A DNA stretch of 62,880 nt, the filler included, from Circinaria calcarea (Eukaryota): the NCBI GenBank assembly GCA_051942165.1. It is 8 parts of 8 records of this genome, joined end to end, with 100 filler letters (N's around TTAATTAATTAA, not from the genome) between each part and the next. Parts side by side here need not be neighbours in the genome. Positions count along the whole stretch, not along the records: positions 31,532 to 39,306 come from JAVECS010001252.1; 7 more parts are not named here. The stretch is one strand, 5' to 3'. This document shows positions 7,790-55,128 of the stretch, in pieces. The translations under genes and the position numbers were made by a program. Below the pieces are notes generated by a model. That model did no database searches. It saw only the letters and a program-made list of their open reading frames with translations, and had not been told where the DNA came from. Every line of letters begins with the position of its first letter. The first letter of the stretch is position 1.

Positions 7790-7889
7790 NNNNNNNNNNN
7801 NNNNNNNNNNNNNNNNNNNNNNNNNNNNNNNNNTTAATTAATTAANNNNNNNNNNNNNNNNNNNNNNNNNNNNNNNNNNNNNNNNNNNN
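7790..7889. other. Artificial contig spacer N44-TTAATTAATTAA-N44
   Basis: Exactly 100 bp with a six-frame-stop core; identical at all seven gaps. Confidence 0.98.
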
Positions 7890-15675: not shown

Positions 15676-15775
15676 NNNNNNNNNNNNNNNNNNNNNNNNN
15701 NNNNNNNNNNNNNNNNNNNTTAATTAATTAANNNNNNNNNNNNNNNNNNNNNNNNNNNNNNNNNNNNNNNNNNNN
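15676..15775. other. Artificial contig spacer
   Basis: N44-TTAATTAATTAA-N44. Confidence 0.98.
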
Positions 15776-23554: not shown

Positions 23555-23654
23555 NNNNNNNNNNNNNNNNNNNNNNNNNNNNNNNNNNNNNNNNNNNNTT
23601 AATTAATTAANNNNNNNNNNNNNNNNNNNNNNNNNNNNNNNNNNNNNNNNNNNN
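23555..23654. other. Artificial contig spacer
   Basis: N44-TTAATTAATTAA-N44. Confidence 0.98.
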
Positions 23655-31431: not shown

Positions 31432-31531
31432 NNNNNNNNNNNNNNNNNNNNNNNNNNNNNNNNNNNNNNNNNNNNTTAATTAATTAANNNNNNNNNNNNN
31501 NNNNNNNNNNNNNNNNNNNNNNNNNNNNNNN
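31432..31531. other. Artificial contig spacer
   Basis: N44-TTAATTAATTAA-N44. Confidence 0.98.
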
Positions 31532-33451
31532 ACCGTCTTGACTTCCAACATCGGGTGGGACCTTGTACACCTGCTCCTCCCACTACTTCCTGCTTCAGAA
31601 CAATGCCTATACGACGTAGCGCGTTTGGGGAATCCGAGGGAGGTGGTTTTGAAAGTCACAGAGCTTCTTGAAGCTATCACACATGAGGAAAACGGTAGTG
31701 GCCGCGAGCAGGAAGATGCAACAGATGAAGAAAACGAACACATTGGATCCGGCGCCGACGAAGGAGGGATCGGAGTGGACTCGAATGCACATGTGAACGC
31801 GGAGACCGCAATCGACTTGTCACAACATGCGGGACATCCACGACCAGTCCCCCCTTCTTCCGCGATGAAGTTCTGCAGCCTCCTCAGCATGCTTTCAATT
31901 CTACATCCACGAATCAAGACCAAACACCCTAGTCGCTTTCTATCGACTTCGCTCCACGCCATGTTGCCAGCGTACACGCAGGTTGCGCGAGATGAGCTGG
32001 CTACTGATGCCGTGTTGAGCTTTCTCAAAACCATCACGGGCTCCAAGAGGCCTAAACTCCCACCACGTATGAGTAGTACAGCGGTGCCTATGCGACAGAA
32101 CATTCAATCTGCTCCGGATCCAGAAGCAGGCCCCGAGACACCTGGCACGGAAGATGCTGCTCTCCAGATTCGTCTTTTGCAGTCATTCTTGACATATGTC
32201 ATAGAAGCCTACGTTGATTCCTTAACATCGATTAATAATGATTCAGCCTTTGCATGGACTAGCCGTCTACAAGAAAAATTGCATCCACAGAAGATCATAC
32301 CGCACCGTACGGCATTCGGCGCCATATTTGCAGAGACCGAGCATCTACAACGAAGGGATACCACTATTGGTCAGATGATAGTAAGTTAGATGGGCCCAGC
32401 ATCGATGTTTGCCAGTAACGTACCTGGAGGACTGATTGAACAGGCACTTGCCCGCGATCTCAATATTCATCCCCTGGAGTTAATAGTAGTAATATCGCAT
32501 GTGGAAGTCGAGGCAGCCGGGAACGAAAATGAAATCGCCTCGTCGCCATCTGATATTCATCTTTCACACACGGGTTCCCTTTACCTTTTCGCTGCTATGC
32601 AGGCGTCATGTGTTCTCTTCGACGCGCCCTCCTTACTCCACCTTGATATTTTCCCTAATCACTCGCGCATCCTTGAGAGCTTCATTGGTGATGCTAACAT
32701 GAACGGCATTGGAGCAGAGCGTGGTTCTTTAGTTGACGCTGTTTTATTGCTCGGATTTGTTGCTTTGCAGGAGCCATCTCTCGGGGAATTGGGAGAGAAT
32801 GAGGACTTTAACAGATATCTGCAGCGACTTTCGGTGCTATCAGCCAATACGCCGTCGCCTAGTCTCCGATATCATGCTCATATTCTTACAACTGCCGTCT
32901 TACACGCGCACCCAAATGCGCAGGCACGGTTTGATTTTATTCGGGATACCTTGGATCAATGTCCTTATGAAAGTTTAAAGGCCAGCGCCGTCGGTTGGTT
33001 CAAAGATGAAGTACTGTCCGCTTTTGAAGATACGAGAGGGGGAGATCCGCTTGACAAGCATGCAGAGTCCCCACACTTCGGATCAGCACATGCTCTGGAT
33101 GCGATAGCCCCATCGCTGTTTTTGGTCGATGTACCTTCGTCTGCCGAGCGAAACGCGCTCTCCTTGCAGATGCCCTTTTTCCTTTCCATTCTCAACCTTT
33201 ACTATCTATTGTGCTCGTCACAACCACTGCGGGATCGTCTGTGTGTCGCGACAGCAACAACTCGGTACGACATCCTTGGTAACTTCATAGGGCCATTGCG
33301 CGAGTTAGTGAAAGAGGCCCGGCTGAATCCAGACGTCCAAGCATTGAATCTGGAGGAGGCGGAGCCAACATTAGTCGGTAGAGCGGATATAGATCTTTTG
33401 GATGAAGCGCTGGAACGGGTGGAGACTGCAATGCATTCTCTTGATTTCTAA
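31532..33451 (+). CDS. YAP-binding/ALF4/glomulin family protein (Ybp1-like), 5' truncated
   Basis: IGWDLVHLLLP..CL.DVARLGNPREVVLKV, RIKTKHPSRFLSTSL and FIRDTLDQCPYESLKASAVGWFKDE; intron about 32381-32443. Confidence 0.8.
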
Positions 33452-34704
33452 ATCAATGATAAGGAACCGGGTGTTATTGGCATAGAAGTGAGCCATATTC
33501 ACGACCTGGTGGATGACCGTGGCGTTGAGGCGTGTATATTTGGCGTTAGGAGGTCAAAGATACCCCACTACATTTAGATATTCGGAAGGAAGGAAACTTG
33601 TATTTTTTTTGCACATTTGGGACGTTGTGTCGCATTGTGCCGGGACACGCGAAAGACTCAGTCCATTGTCCACTAAAGCCCCTTGGTCTTGTTCTACCCC
33701 CCTCCCCATTCCAGGCAAGTCCCCAGCACCTACCACATACATACATACCCTTCAGTATCACTTTCCCACAGAGGAAGCATAAAGTTCACCAATCAGCCGC
33801 AGGCAACTACATACACACGCACTCGATAAGTTTAACGTCAGTCGGTCAGGTGCATCAACGAGCTTAGGATCATTGTCTCAAGAAGCGATCTTGTATTAAA
33901 ATAGAAAGGCCACCACCGCACCATCGGGCTGCCTAACCCCCGGCCATCCCATTCAGGCTAGCTAGACCCTTCAGGGAGGGGAGGGGAGGACATATTTTGA
34001 CGATGGCGACGGCCTCTAGATTAATGAGATCAGAAAAGAGCGGAGGTGGGTTATTAAGGAAAGGCAAGGCAAGAATTCGTAAATGGGAAGGAAATACATG
34101 ATGTTGGGGTGCCCCGCCGACTCCGGTTGGGGGTGGAGGGGGTACAAACAGAGAACCGGAAAAGGAAAGGGAAGAGCAAAAAAGGAGTGGGAGCGGAGTG
34201 GCTTGTCCCGTGCCAAACGTCGTTTCCTTCCTTCCTGCCCGCCCGTCAGAGCTGTAACCCGAAAAAACCCCCGTGGCGGTCGGTTCTATTCTCGTCTGGG
34301 TGGTTGAGAAGGTAGAATGGAAAGAAGACAGTGGGTCTTAGGGGTACAGAGGAGGAAGGAAAAGGAAGACCGAGCTGCAGGGTTGGAAATTTATTAAAGA
34401 CAGGTGAAACGAGCAGTACAAAGCATCCCCAAGGCCCCTGCATAAGGAGGTCAAAAAATCAAAAAACAAAAAACTCCGGGGGTGGAAAATAAAAACAAGA
34501 TGTGTGTGCTAGACAGGCCACGCCACCTGAGTCCTCTCCGGGTTCCAGCATTCCTTCTGTTGGCTTGGAATCTCCAAGTTCTGTGTTACAGCGGCTATCG
34601 CAAAGGCAAGTCGGTGGCGCAAAAAGGATAAGAGTGCGGAAGACGCGGGAAAGAGAACGTCAATGACGCGTTCTGCTGCCATTGTATTGCGTGGTGAACC
34701 CGCT

Positions 34705-34908
34705 CTACATGACTGTGCAGCCGTAGTAGGGGTTACCTGTGACGGAATGTCAGTAATACTCAAGTGTGCGAGGATAGAGGGGATGGGTATAAGGGAGCGG
34801 GAGCCGGGGTAACTTACCACGAGCGTCCTTTGGCTGCTCTTGATCTTGTGCGGCAGAAGATGAGACTGGGGCCGCAGGTGCGGAAGCAGTGTAATTGATA
34901 GGAGACAT
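34705..34908 (-). CDS. Putative a-factor-type (CaaX, farnesylated) mating pheromone precursor, 40 aa, 2 coding exons
   Basis: Exon 34908-34818, 81-nt intron 34817-34737 (GTAAGT..ACTGAC..CAG), exon 34736-34705. Product MSPINYTASAPAAPVSSSAAQDQEQPKDARGNPYYGCTVM*. A-rich leader ending ACAAAATG; 5'-UTR intron 35043-34954. Confidence 0.85.
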
Positions 34909-35117
34909 TTTGTTCGTTGGTTTGGTTGTTGTTTGATTTGGTGGTTTGAAGATCTAGTTGGGCGGAAAGATGATGTTAGCAATGAACGTCGAATGAGGGA
35001 GAAGTGAGGGTAGGGAAGAGCAAGGCAAAGGGAAGAGACTTACTGTGCGAGCAATGAATGTGGAGAATGTAAATTGATTACGGGTGAGGATCGAAGTCAT
35101 GGGCTGCCACGCTGAGC

Positions 35118-35280
35118 TTTTATAGCTGTCTTTGACGGACGACAACATCGCCATTGCTTGGGGGCTTTGAGTTTGTAACTGAGAACGTGTAGTGTCGATT
35201 CTTTGTGCGTTCAAGCTGATGGAGCGTGGTGGAAGTACGTGTGGATTGCTTAGTATTGTACTGCCTTAGTATTGTTGCTT
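35118..35280 (-). promoter_or_regulatory. Promoter of the pheromone-like micro-gene: TATA box plus HMG-box-like sites
   Basis: TATAAAA on the minus strand at 35124-35118; ACAAAGAA (plus strand TTCTTTGT, 35199-35206); two TAGTATTGT copies (ACAAT cores) near 35251 and 35267. Confidence 0.6.
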
Positions 35281-36463
35281 GTTAAAGCTGTGAAAGAACG
35301 GGGAATGTCGGGAATGGGAGAGAGATGGGATGAGAGGACGTTGGAGGAGGCATGATACCGTCATAGTGAGAATGCTGCAATTCAATTGGTGTGAATGCGA
35401 TCCGATGGCTGGCAAAAGCAAGTGGTATTTGTATACGCTCTGGCATTCTAGGTGGAGATGCAGATAAGACACTCATACAATGCAGACAGCATTGGTCGCT
35501 AGGAGCCCTTCACAATGATAATACGATGACAGTTGGACATTCATCTCGGCTAAATTAACTCTTGACCAGGAGGATTTGTCATGGATTGATCAACTGGCTC
35601 TGATAGTAGAAAACCCAAGGAAGGGTGTACGTACTTTCTGAGCGAGAAAGTATGGAAACTAAAGCAACAGAGACTTGAGGAACCTGTCGATCTGTGAAGT
35701 ATACGCTTCAAAGCTCTAGTATAGTGACTTGGTTGAGTACTTAGAGAATATTGCGGCAGATGATAGAAAGTGAAGCTCGTGACAGGATCCTGAAGGCTGA
35801 CGATTCAAGTTTGCCCGCTTCTCCAGCCATTTTGAAGCTCTACTCTTCCTAGCAGTGGTAAGAGTTTAGCATGCCATTACTCGATATCAGGCGCATCACA
35901 AGCACAGTCGGAGGCTTGTATCATTCCGACGACCAATCTCTCAAACAGCCTTGAGGCTATCGGGACAAATCAGGTGCTAGAGGTATACACATAATCCAGC
36001 GAGTTTGCACAGACAGCTCACCGTCGACCGCTTGAAAGAGAAGTACTATTGGCTTACTCTGATTGTCCTCAGAATGTAAAGGACGGGATGTGGTTGAGCG
36101 CATTCGGCGCTAGGACGCTTTTGGGATAGCGGTCAGACCAAAGAGGCCTTGGTATTGTTCCCAGACACATATACTCTAAGGCACATGGACAAGAGCAGTG
36201 TTTTTAGTGTTGATGCCTTTGCCAGCCGGATCTGGTTCAAGGACATTATCGATAAAGCATCTAGTTGGTGCCAACAAGACTCTGCCAAATTGCACATAAC
36301 CTCTCAGACACCAGGTTTCCAACGTAAGATCGGCTCTATTCCAGGAGATTTTCACATATCCAAAGCCAATTTCCCAGACTTGATCAGATTTTTAAACTCA
36401 CACCCTTACTTATTCCCATCGCATCGACATTCTTCGATAGACAATCTCAAGAGAAGGCATCGT

Positions 36464-39306
36464 CTAGGTGTATATCACCTCCGTAAAGGCGTTGAGGCTC
36501 AAGCCTTCCTTGGCAATGTCTTCTTTGATCAGGAAAAGCAGCGGCATCTCGACCAGAGTCCCCTTGACGGTACTCAACAGATCCTTCATCTCCCGGACAC
36601 CCTGCTCCCCTGGCGAGAAGTTCTCTGCGACGACATGGCCCCATCGATACTTGGCAGGAACCTTGGTTCCTTCCTTTCCCTCCACTTCCTGGTCTGCTTC
36701 GTGAAAGAAGCGCTCATAGAAGGCATCATAGTCTTTCCACGTTCGCACATCATCATGGGGAACTGGGTGGAAGATCTTACCAAAGGCCTCGGTATTCTGC
36801 TTTGCTCTCCCATTCCAGAAATTGAGGAATTTGTCCGACAACGGGTCCGCCACGGCCAGGTCCTCAGCAGACCCAAAGTCGTAGATATTGGGCACCCCAA
36901 TCGGCTCAAAGTTCGGATCCGGCCACTCCATGTCCTGTGAGGGGATCAAGCCAAGGTGCTTTCGAAAGAGCTGTCTCCGTAATGTGGCTGCGAACTTTGA
37001 TGCTTCCCAAGGGCGCCCATTCATATAAGAGTCTAGTGGAGTAGGATCCTCGATGATCAGTGCGATTTCGGAGTCGTGGTCGCCTAATTGAGAGCGGTCG
37101 TTGAGATTTGCTGAGCCGCAGACCACAATTCGATCATCCGCGATCAACACCTGTAAGCCCTAGTTAGCACTTGCTAGTGGTCAATGTGAGGTTGCCTGCC
37201 TTGGAATGGATGTAGAGTTCTTCGCTAACAAAAGCATCCATTTCAGTCAAGTCCCCTTCATCCCAAGGAACTGTTCGGATGTCTTGTCCACCTAACATGT
37301 AGCATTCACTGACGGTATCCCAGCGATTATTCCCTAGTCCTTTTCGATCCGATATAGTACTTGCCGCCTGCTGATATCGTTGATAGAATTGGCTCGAGCC
37401 GTTGTAGTCTCCTGGAGCCCCTTGAGCGAGGTACCCAGTCAAATCAACATTTACATCGTGCTGCCTTCGTGCCGTTTCGTAATCAACGCCACTTTTTTGC
37501 TCGGCTTCTCGCATCGAGGCACTCGCATTGATCCTATCGTAGTTCCGCAGGTTGTAAAACCGAATGTAGTCCGTCGGCTCAAAGCCGGCTTTCGCAATCG
37601 ACTCCATGATGCTATGGCCGCCACGGTTGATCGAGTTGTATTGAAATTCCATGATGGCGCGAGTCCCAAGACTTGCCTCGTCCTTGAGATCGCCCGCAAA
37701 TGCCGGTATTGCTGGCATAAGGACGATGACCTTGTATTTCTGCCCAGCCCTCGCAGCTCGGAGAATGCGTTCGACAATGGCTCCGCCAATTTTGTTCCTC
37801 ACCGGGTGTTGGGCGTTGGAGGTGGCGGTGATGAAAAACTGGTTTTCGATATACACAAAGTGCTGGCTGTTCTCTATGATACTGATATATGCATTGGCGA
37901 CGGAGTGTTCCGTAGGTACATTGTGGCTCCATTTGCTGCAACTTCGCACTACCTGGCATGAGATACCACCTTCCTCGCCGCCGCCAAGGTACTGGTCTTG
38001 AACTTCCTGCATGCCTTGCTCCAATCGGTCCTCGAACCTTTCCTTCAGATCATGCACCCTGTGATGGCGTCCATGGTGAGATGCGTGAAAACCGAATCCG
38101 CTGTTATCGCCTGTTTGGCTGGATTCGTTGCCTCGGGACTGCGATGAGAATGGGTTTTGCATTAAGGAGAGCCGCGAGTACCTCGTGTCCTGTCTTACAT
38201 CGTACTTCTCGTTGTAAATGAAATTCCAGCGGTCCACAAAGTGTTCCCTGAGGTCCTTGACCACTGGACCACGTAGACTGATTGAAATATCCGACCACCC
38301 CATCCTTGAACTCTCCTTCCTATCAAGTTTGTTGTTTTCCCAGTGAACAACATCAGAGAAGTCCATGATCCTCGCGTTGTTGAAATCCTGACCGGGAAAG
38401 ACAATCTCGTCCAGATTGCCCGGATGGGCATCTGCAATCGGGTGTTGATTCGTGTCCCAGCGACCATAGCAGAGATCCAGTCCTCCCATGAACGCTATTT
38501 TGCTATCCACTATGCATAGCTTCTCATGATGGGCCCAGTACAATATGACGTCGTCATTCATCCCATAGACGGCCTTAAGCGCATCGCCAGGCAACTTGGA
38601 TACAGTTGCGGCATTCAATGATAGGTTTCGTAGCGAAGATACAAAGCTAGACTCAAAGGTGGTCCTATCCGGTAGATGGTCCGGATGACGGAACACGCAA
38701 ATGTTCGGATGGAGATCTTCCAACGCGTGCTTGGTGTGGCTAGATGACACTGGCACCGGTGGCGCTATCAGCGGGTTCTCTGCTTCCTGATACTCGAGAG
38801 ATTTGAATATCGCAGCCAGCCCAAGTCCACTGAGAGTCCTTGTGACAGGGTCGGTGTGGCCGGGGAGAAGGGAATGGAGATAATTGGGTAACGTTGGAGA
38901 TAAGTACTTACGTGTCAGGGCTTGGGTGACTTCCTTGTAGACAATAATGTTAACTTTGGCACCTCGCTGAGCTGCTGCCAGGAGCATCCGGTCGATTCGG
39001 TATTGTTCATTCCTCGAAGGGGGTCTGCGGAGATACAGCTCCGGGGATAACCACCCTAGATTATCAGCGACATTGCTAGATCTGTAGACATATCTCACAA
39101 TCGAGGATCCAGATGCTTTCTCGGGCTCGCTCGAGGGCTGTGGACACGGCCCACATGTAGCTGCATCCGTCGACGTGCCATTTCACGTCGTTGCCATCCC
39201 TTGGATGAGCGAAACTTCCATAACGATGGGATGAATGGAGGGTCCCGTCGGAACCTTCTGTGTTGGCATGCGTATCGTCGACTCTATTGACTAGCTCTGC
39301 TCCAAC
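36464..39306 (-). CDS. Phospholipase D (two HKD motifs), 5' truncated
   Basis: ILDWWLSPELYLRRP, YWAHHEKLCIVD, FMGGLDLCYGRWDT, FVYIENQFFI and ELYIHSK|VLIADDRIVVCGSANLNDRSQLGDHDSE. Confidence 0.95.
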
Positions 39307-39406
39307 NNNNNNNNNNNNNNNNNNNNNNNNNNNNNNNNNNNNNNNNNNNNTTAATTAATTAANNNNNNNNNNNNNNNNNNNNNNNNNNNNNNNNNNNNNN
39401 NNNNNN
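39307..39406. other. Artificial contig spacer
   Basis: N44-TTAATTAATTAA-N44. Confidence 0.98.
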
Positions 39407-47173: not shown

Positions 47174-47273
47174 NNNNNNNNNNNNNNNNNNNNNNNNNNN
47201 NNNNNNNNNNNNNNNNNTTAATTAATTAANNNNNNNNNNNNNNNNNNNNNNNNNNNNNNNNNNNNNNNNNNNN
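47174..47273. other. Artificial contig spacer
   Basis: N44-TTAATTAATTAA-N44. Confidence 0.98.
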
Positions 47274-55028: not shown

Positions 55029-55128
55029 NNNNNNNNNNNNNNNNNNNNNNNNNNNNNNNNNNNNNNNNNNNNTTAATTAATTAANNNNNNNNNNNNNNNN
55101 NNNNNNNNNNNNNNNNNNNNNNNNNNNN
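55029..55128. other. Artificial contig spacer
   Basis: N44-TTAATTAATTAA-N44. Confidence 0.98.

Follow-up and report, generated by a model that had tools for sequence, protein, structure and literature searches.

The window analysed here is a stretch of 62,880 nucleotides from Circinaria calcarea (GCA_051942165.1), assembled from eight parts joined by filler, of which positions 31,532 to 39,306 come from JAVECS010001252.1. On its minus strand, in the gap between a gene of the Ybp1/Ybp2 type and a phospholipase D (PLD) gene, sequence comparison indicates a real, unannotated two-exon gene at 34908-34705, with a promoter extending at least to 35275. We consider it likely that this micro-gene encodes a cytosolic precursor of 40 amino acids for a lipopeptide mating pheromone of the a-factor type. 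A first-pass annotation of the same DNA had proposed a TATA box, signals of an intron in the 5'-untranslated region (5'-UTR), a leader, an ATG and an 81-nt coding intron on this strand, and reading the sequence found all of them in place; the TATA box and the 5'-UTR intron are candidates predicted from sequence signals.

35118..35124, minus strand: candidate TATA box TATAAAA, read in the sequence, at -216 from the ATG
34954..35043, minus strand: predicted 5'-UTR intron, 90 nt, with GTAAGT at 35043-35038, GCTAAC at 34980-34975 and TAG ending at 34954
34909..34953, minus strand: A/C-rich leader with CAAA immediately before the ATG, from sequence reading; similar leaders occur in relatives
34818..34908, minus strand: coding exon 1, 91 nt; Met and an S/T/P/A-rich hydrophilic pro-region up to KDAR, plus the first base of a Gly codon
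34737..34817, minus strand: phase-1 intron, 81 nt, with donor GTAAGT at 34817, branch ACTGAC and acceptor CAG ending at 34737
34705..34736, minus strand: coding exon 2, 32 nt (29 nt and the stop codon TAG at 34707-34705); (G)NPYYG-CTVM-stop, the putative mature unit and CaaX box

Splicing by these coordinates gives MSPINYTASAPAAPVSSSAAQDQEQPKDAR followed by GNPYYGCTVM and a stop. The product has 40 amino acids and a single Cys, which lies inside the terminal CTVM as the first-pass annotation had it. Read unspliced from the ATG at 34908, the same DNA gives an open reading frame (ORF) of 52 amino acids (34750..34908) without a CaaX box. A, S, P and Q are abundant among the first 30 residues of the spliced peptide, and because the peptide is hydrophilic throughout (Kyte-Doolittle mean -0.57, highest 9-residue window 0.82, no hydrophobic stretch), no signal peptide is predicted. 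A Pfam search with the 52-amino-acid ORF gave no family match, and an Rfam search over 33400-36500 gave nothing at E <= 1. Exon 2 of the micro-gene is the single instance of a family-like CxxM-stop in the window. A 66-amino-acid ATG ORF on the minus strand at 34954-35154, which begins upstream of the TATA box and crosses the predicted 5'-UTR intron, was taken as non-coding.

Conservation of the micro-gene and its upstream element

A two-exon CaaX model finder was applied to both strands of the entire window, with 30 Markov-2 simulated windows as the null. The window yielded the micro-gene alone. Simulated 62.9-kb windows contained on average 0.47 models when any CxxX was accepted (n=30), and C-[TSVCAIL]-[VILM]-M sites were found in 0 of 30. 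By themselves the sequence signals are suggestive and moderately unlikely to arise by chance, and they are not decisive; we hold the micro-gene to be real because it is conserved in relatives.

Since no annotated protein resembles the 52-amino-acid ORF, the conserved C-terminal exon of the neighbouring PLD gene was chosen as bait for metagenome contigs, which gave 80 fungal loci (PLD identity 57-82%), set with PLD on the plus strand. A short gene on the same strand, ending C-x-[VI]-M, lay downstream of PLD in 31 of the 80 loci; it has a single unit with a CaaX-stop in 29 of them and tandem units in the other two (loci L032 and L056). The first-pass annotation had named absence of a conserved CaaX-stop in close relatives among the outcomes that would speak against its proposal, and the feature persists in these 31 loci. 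The distance from PLD to the micro-gene is 1.0-2.5 kb, or 6.2-7.4 kb in four loci (L015, L024, L025 and L026); this sub-lineage has about 5 kb of additional DNA between the two genes, whereas the interval is about 1.6 kb in L014, L016 and L017. In the zone after PLD, plus strand, CxxM-stops occur at a density of 37 per 232 kb, compared with 27 per 1,776 kb elsewhere. Some loci have a second CxxM-stop (GCGLM and PLCSLM types) with neither a gene model nor similarity, which was taken as chance.

The occurrence of the micro-gene follows the PLD tree. The window falls within a clade of 27 rows (support 97/84), in which the micro-gene was found in 22 of the 22 loci with enough downstream flank; the four loci of this clade in which it was not found have just 331-1,564 nt of flank. 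The sister clade (9 rows, support 100/100) has it in all eight loci with enough flank, and in the other PLD clades among the 80 loci it was not found downstream of PLD. The DNA itself is mostly unalignable: a blastn search with the 1-kb micro-gene region against the 80 loci returned a single match of 28 nt, which is the pair of promoter elements described below. An exact degenerate pattern for NPYYGCTVM-stop had 0 matches in the metagenome contigs. The endings found in the relatives are as follows.

GQPGYG-CTVM: 9 loci
GSPGFG-CCIM: 7 loci, four of which have the gene 6-7 kb from PLD
GSPGYS-CCVM: 3 loci
HPGWSA-CSVM: 3 loci
VSPGGG-CTVM: 3 loci
ASPG[AG]G-CVVM and AAPGGG-CVVM: 3 loci
GSTGQ-CIVM: L073
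Multi-unit endings: L032 and L056

The model finder recovered the two-exon structure in relatives. Their leaders are A/C-rich and end in AAA or ACA, the context of the ATG is CAAA or AAAA, the peptide starts MSP, MQP or MPA, and T, S, A and P abound in the pro-region, which in the window's clade ends with an acidic-x-Arg motif (QEAR, QDNR, QDGR or VDER, and KDAR in the window). The coding intron of the relatives is of phase 1 and 51-130 nt long. Of the 13 single-unit models, 11 have a last exon of exactly 32 nt, entered right after Arg or Lys, and reading of the sequence gives the same length for L053 and L054.

Last exon of 32 nt by the model finder: the window (WIN), L002, L005, L014, L016, L015, L024, L018, L022, L049 and L055

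L008 and L012 have an identical peptide of 30 amino acids, although their last exons show three synonymous changes and their introns measure 130 and 70 nt; L014 and L016 differ by one synonymous change. Within group A the loci share 92% overall identity, and a GC donor occurs in one. Judged from such sequence comparison, selection on the micro-gene acts at the protein level. After the acidic-x-R/K site the consensus of the unit is [GAV]-x-[PN]-[GY]-[YFG]-[GS]-C, seven residues, and the CaaX box is C[TSVC][VI]M; across lineages the unit sequence diverges while the processing features stay constant.

Comparing k-mers in the 700 nt before the ATG across 12 lineages revealed a shared element, ACAATA[CT]TAAG (ACAATAYTAAG). 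The window has two matches on both strands together, both upstream of the micro-gene, compared with 0.03 expected by chance.

35265..35275, minus strand: promoter element ACAATACTAAG, copy 1, at -367 from the ATG
35249..35259, minus strand: promoter element ACAATACTAAG, copy 2, at -351 from the ATG; it repeats copy 1 directly, 16 nt further on

Over 1.07 Mb (the 80 loci and the window, both strands) the element occurs 47 times, and 33 of these occurrences lie within 800 nt upstream of mapped ATGs. It precedes the micro-gene ATG at less than 800 nt in 21 of 26 sequences with a mapped ATG, and an exact copy is present in 10 of 12 representative lineages. On these counts the element appears nearly specific to the micro-gene. 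Direct pairs, 16-34 nt apart, are frequent in relatives (L014, L018 and L007). In some loci further copies lie shortly after the PLD stop codon, upstream of the main pair, at about -1238 from the ATG in L014, L016 and L017 and about -1300 in L018, L019 and L022, as well as at 7630-7656 in L007 and 7279 in L010. A 5'-UTR intron candidate bounded by consensus signals is found at a similar place in 5 of the 12 lineages (WIN, L002, L014, L015 and L018).

The AACAAT core of the element presumably resembles sites bound by high-mobility-group (HMG) box proteins, which is an indirect hint, and the only one, that expression of the micro-gene may depend on mating type or mating stage. Two other assignments were rejected. 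As a site for the alpha-box protein MAT1-1-1 the element was dropped because its other strand reads TATTGT, which misfits the consensus (T/C)(T/C)ATTGA(G/T/C) given in the MAT1-1-1 passages of PMC8022922. The Ste12-type sequence TGAAACA was rejected as a shared promoter element, being present in only 1 of the 12 promoters.

The predicted mature unit and multi-unit relatives

The window gene has a single unit, and the boundaries of that unit may be read from relatives in which it is repeated. In L032 (2449-2739) the conserved intron is followed by five K-spaced copies of GQNGYGC, each with T/S-x-M and the last ending in a CaaX-stop, with synonymous differences between the copies. L056 (1561-1800) has four K-spaced copies of APGGGC with VVM, whereas its nearest relative, L054, has one ASPGGGC-VVM unit only. 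It follows from the tandem units of L032 and L056 that the unit is seven residues long, from the Gly after the basic residue through the Cys. The first-pass annotation had put the mature peptide at about GNPYYGC, and the repeats of seven-residue unit, CaaX and Lys set the boundary at the same place, so that G-N-P-Y-Y-G-C is supported as the window's predicted mature unit. A change in unit copy number between close relatives is the pattern expected for the precursor of a diffusible peptide.

The L032 repeat exon had no match at E <= 1 among proteins of 29-93 amino acids. A HMMER search of the whole library with the same exon gave 71 matches, low-complexity ones among them. Twelve of the 71 were inspected, and they comprised six unnamed multi-unit CaaX peptides (P0130, P0139, P0144, P0147, P0163 and P0172) and six unrelated repeat proteins. 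P0163 has four K-ASPGGGC-xVM units, and P0172 starts with MPSN and ends with CTIM. All six peptides (82-167 amino acids) are over-extended gene calls, in which the tandem units stand behind an apparently translated 5' leader, and several have no terminal CaaX box.

Resemblance to a-factor precursors and alternative explanations

The features of the micro-gene are those of the a-factor class. The precursor is shorter than 100 amino acids and ends exactly at the CaaX-stop, and it has a hydrophilic N-terminal extension and no signal peptide. The CaaX-stop and the unit are conserved in the 31 of 80 PLD-anchored loci while the remainder of the peptide diverges, and some family members have tandem mature units (five in L032, four in L056). 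Met at the last position of a CaaX box directs farnesylation, and the window's CTVM is a tetrapeptide of the farnesylation type (last residue M, S, Q, A or C) found in characterised a-factors; it is the same as in Gibberella zeae Ppg2 and lies inside the HPP1 motif.

If the yeast a-factor pathway is taken as the model, the Cys of the C-terminal CTVM would be farnesylated, TVM would then be cleaved off, and the new C-terminus would be methyl-esterified. The hydrophilic pro-region would be removed at or near the acidic-x-Arg site directly before the intron, leaving approximately G-N-P-Y-Y-G-C(farnesyl)-OMe. This peptide would be exported by a Ste6-type ATP-binding cassette (ABC) transporter, bypassing the secretory pathway, and would be sensed by the Ste3/PRE1-type receptor of the partner. 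Transcription would probably be driven via the paired ACAATAYTAAG elements.

Mature yeast a-factor is a 12-mer with CVIA, and the yeast a-factor genes are not known to have an intron. The papers on MFA1 and MFA2 of Saccharomyces cerevisiae (PMC2134810 and PMC2148179) describe a biogenesis of CaaX processing, then N-terminal proteolysis and non-classical export; the precursor of about 36 amino acids, with its MQP start and hydrophilic pro-region, is like the present one, and this is the pathway model used above. Beyond such class features there is no sequence similarity between MFA1/MFA2 and the window gene.

Among the Sordariomycete a-type precursors in S2 File of PMC10569646, those of Neurospora crassa mfa-1 and Sordaria macrospora ppg2 end in CVVM, and that of G. 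zeae ppg2 ends in PGYPLSCTVM, compared with GQPGYGCTVM in relatives of the window gene. Like the micro-gene product, these precursors are short, lack a signal peptide and have an MPS start (MSP in the window), an S/T/P-rich pro-region, and Gly or an aromatic residue before a single Cys in CVVM or CTVM. Unlike it, they have 21-24 amino acids rather than 40. The present family has a phase-1 intron before the mature unit, of which the passages on the Sordariomycete genes hold no statement, and the Sordariomycete locus is described as lying beside a cyanate lyase gene (PMC3068285), not between PLD and Ybp.

The multi-unit relatives have counterparts of their own. The parts of PMC10569646 on Verticillium and Huntiella describe multi-copy a-factor precursors in which the unit with its CaaX is repeated with K or R spacers, and those of PMC3068285 on Trichoderma reesei describe HPP1, which has three (LI)GC(TS)VM motifs and is required for male fertility. 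In these h-type precursors K or R stands between successive units, each of which ends C-[TS]-[VIL]-M; L032 and L056 have this repeated architecture, and the R-G start of the Huntiella units resembles the Arg-Gly junction in the window. The window gene differs from them in having just one unit; in detail the unit sequences show no relation, and lineage and synteny are different too.

A further small CTVM protein and putative a-factor, the Leotiomycete BCIN_13g03330 family, is listed in S10 File of PMC10569646, where its members are 45-64 amino acids long, S/T-rich at the N-terminus, mostly CTVM-ended and unannotated. The window gene is like it in encoding a small protein, in the S/T-rich N-terminus and in the CTVM end. 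However, the Leotiomycete family is Cys-rich (ending ...CDGYECCCIPIPCTVM) and almost invariant across its class, whereas members of the present family, fast-changing in sequence, carry either one Cys or two side by side. Membership was rejected because the Cys-rich block (...CDGYECCCIPIPC and CaaX) is absent from the window gene, which has one Cys and no visible sequence relation to the listed members.

Several points weigh against the a-factor identity. At their length the peptides cannot show statistically significant homology to characterised a-factors, so that the link to them depends on architecture and motifs, and no annotated protein homologue of the 52-amino-acid unspliced ORF was found among proteins of 28-91 amino acids. 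L056 does not stop at its CaaX but has four additional residues after the last one, and prenylation of the internal units in multi-unit precursors is left unexplained. The group of L008, L012 and L077 deviates, with a last exon of 41 nt and a unit that has no basic residue before it. The lineage placement of the window depends on a quick tree with moderate support (89 in the Shimodaira-Hasegawa-like approximate likelihood ratio test, SH-aLRT). Finally, the widely conserved CTVM protein of the Leotiomycetes is described in the relevant part of PMC10569646 as having an expression that does not depend on mating type, and because of it conservation and a CaaX box are no proof of pheromone function.

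This last point leads to the strongest alternative, a conserved small prenylated peptide with a non-mating role, either a membrane-anchored micro-protein or a lipopeptide signal in vegetative development or symbiosis, which would use the CaaX pathway and not be sensed by Ste3 in mating. Conservation, the CaaX box, the intron and the promoter element prove a constrained coding gene and not its biological role; besides the Leotiomycete protein, whose conservation goes together with mating-type-independent expression, the passages on Neurospora and Fusarium in Wilson et al. 2023 review non-mating uses of pheromones. Against this, the tandem seven-residue units with their shifting copy number (L054 and L056; L032) are typical of diffusible-peptide precursors and unexpected for a membrane-anchored protein, the unit diverges among lineages with fixed processing features in the way that parts of PMC3068285 describe for a-type pheromones, and the architecture is the same as that of named a-factor precursors. 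We therefore regard a non-mating role as possible and clearly less probable than the pheromone precursor proposed here.

Much less credible is a longer gene of which the micro-gene would be just the final exon or exons, with further coding exons overlooked upstream and the CaaX box forming the tail of a larger prenylated protein, for instance a small GTPase or a G-gamma subunit. Such proteins commonly carry CaaX tails, and there are candidate intron signals upstream of the ATG. However, the ATG, with its MSP/MQP/MPA start and CAAA/AAAA context, is conserved across lineages and follows an A/C-rich leader, the analyses made turned up no conserved coding exon further upstream, the PLD-to-Ybp gap is a mere 2.2-3.0 kb and contains the promoter element, the unspliced ORF has no Pfam match, and the multi-unit relatives cannot be GTPase tails. 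Equally improbable is that splice-like signals and a CaaX-stop came together by chance in non-coding DNA between genes or in a non-coding RNA: simulated windows of 62.9 kb do contain about 0.47 two-exon CxxX models each, but the C-aliphatic-aliphatic-M type appeared in none of the 30, the model is found again in 31 of 80 loci of unalignable DNA with the same exon length and synonymous changes, the related loci are not near-identical copies of one sequence, and Rfam has no match over the region searched.

Genomic address, lineage and significance

The first-pass annotation placed the micro-gene between a YBP1-like gene and PLD, and the domain matches agree, with PF08568 on the plus strand ending at 33451 and PF00614 on the minus strand ending at 36464.

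36464..39182, minus strand: phospholipase D (PLD) gene, PF00614; upstream neighbour and syntenic anchor
31865..33451, plus strand: Ybp1/Ybp2-type gene, PF08568; convergent neighbour and syntenic anchor

The convergent Ybp gene comes next in 16 of the 80 PLD-anchored loci, and the whole gap between PLD and Ybp, promoter element included, is 2.2-3.0 kb. The Ybp exon of the window has at most 51% identity to any protein in the collection searched; its best named matches are to lichen fungi, Xylona and Dothideomycetes, at 38-44%. The loci of groups A and B are nearest to Lecanora and Dirinaria (52-56%), and in the quick Ybp tree the window groups with named Lecanoromycetes (SH-aLRT 89). An ESM Atlas search with the PLD exon was uninformative about the taxon. 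These placements make a lichen-type Lecanoromycete that lacks a close sequenced relative the probable source of the window. The window's clade is probably Lecanoromycetes. Sequence and synteny point to an orthologous family that this clade keeps between PLD and the Ybp-type gene, and indicate that in the sister clade the family is held downstream of PLD.

Wilson et al. 2023 (PMC10569646), in the passages on a-factor distribution, know of no a-factor gene in Pezizomycotina outside Sordariomycetes. Full-text literature searches with the peptide motifs of the family gave no match, searches for pheromone genes of lichens gave nothing relevant, and searches for an a-factor-like pheromone in Eurotiomycetes gave nothing that matched. 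The proposal that the pheromone is undescribed for its lineage fits this literature, and the micro-gene is probably the first a-factor-type precursor gene for the lichen-type lineage. Krappmann et al. 2025 (Curr Biol 35:2414), by its title, is said to report an a-factor-like pheromone, PpgB, of Aspergillus fumigatus. By title alone PpgB is like the present product in being a-factor-like, recently found and from non-Sordariomycete Pezizomycotina; the VSPGGGCTVM and ASPGGGCVVM types of the sister clade may or may not be orthologous to it.

A wider proposal joins these parts. The gene would be the long-missing a-pheromone of the lichen-forming Lecanoromycetes, and PLD, pheromone gene and convergent Ybp would form one ancient orthologous locus common to this class and a sister class, with a phase-1 intron exactly at the junction of pro-region and mature unit, a farnesylated heptapeptide signal and paired HMG-type ACAATAYTAAG elements. 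We regard this joint reading as evenly poised between true and false. If it is true, synteny could serve to locate a-pheromone genes in hundreds of genomes in which searches by homology are unsuccessful, and mate recognition of unculturable lichen fungi would be open to tests with synthetic peptides.

Genes of the a-factor type are among the hardest fungal genes to detect, being tiny, fast-evolving and seldom annotated, and they have rarely been found beyond a few model fungi. The constant genomic address, the constant position of the intron and the recognisable promoter element together offer a practical route to such genes in lichen-type fungi and the sister clade. The sexual cycles of lichen fungi cannot be run in the laboratory, and the predicted heptapeptide lipopeptide together with a receptor would permit a yeast-reporter test of mate recognition. 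The variation in unit copy number among close relatives is material for studies of how pheromone precursors evolve.

The window also has paired 44-N runs with a period of about 7.9 kb (7790-7889, 15676-15775, 23555-23654, 31432-31531, 39307-39406, 47174-47273 and 55029-55128). They have the look of regular masking, not of gaps in the assembly, and one pair lies within the Ybp-type gene.

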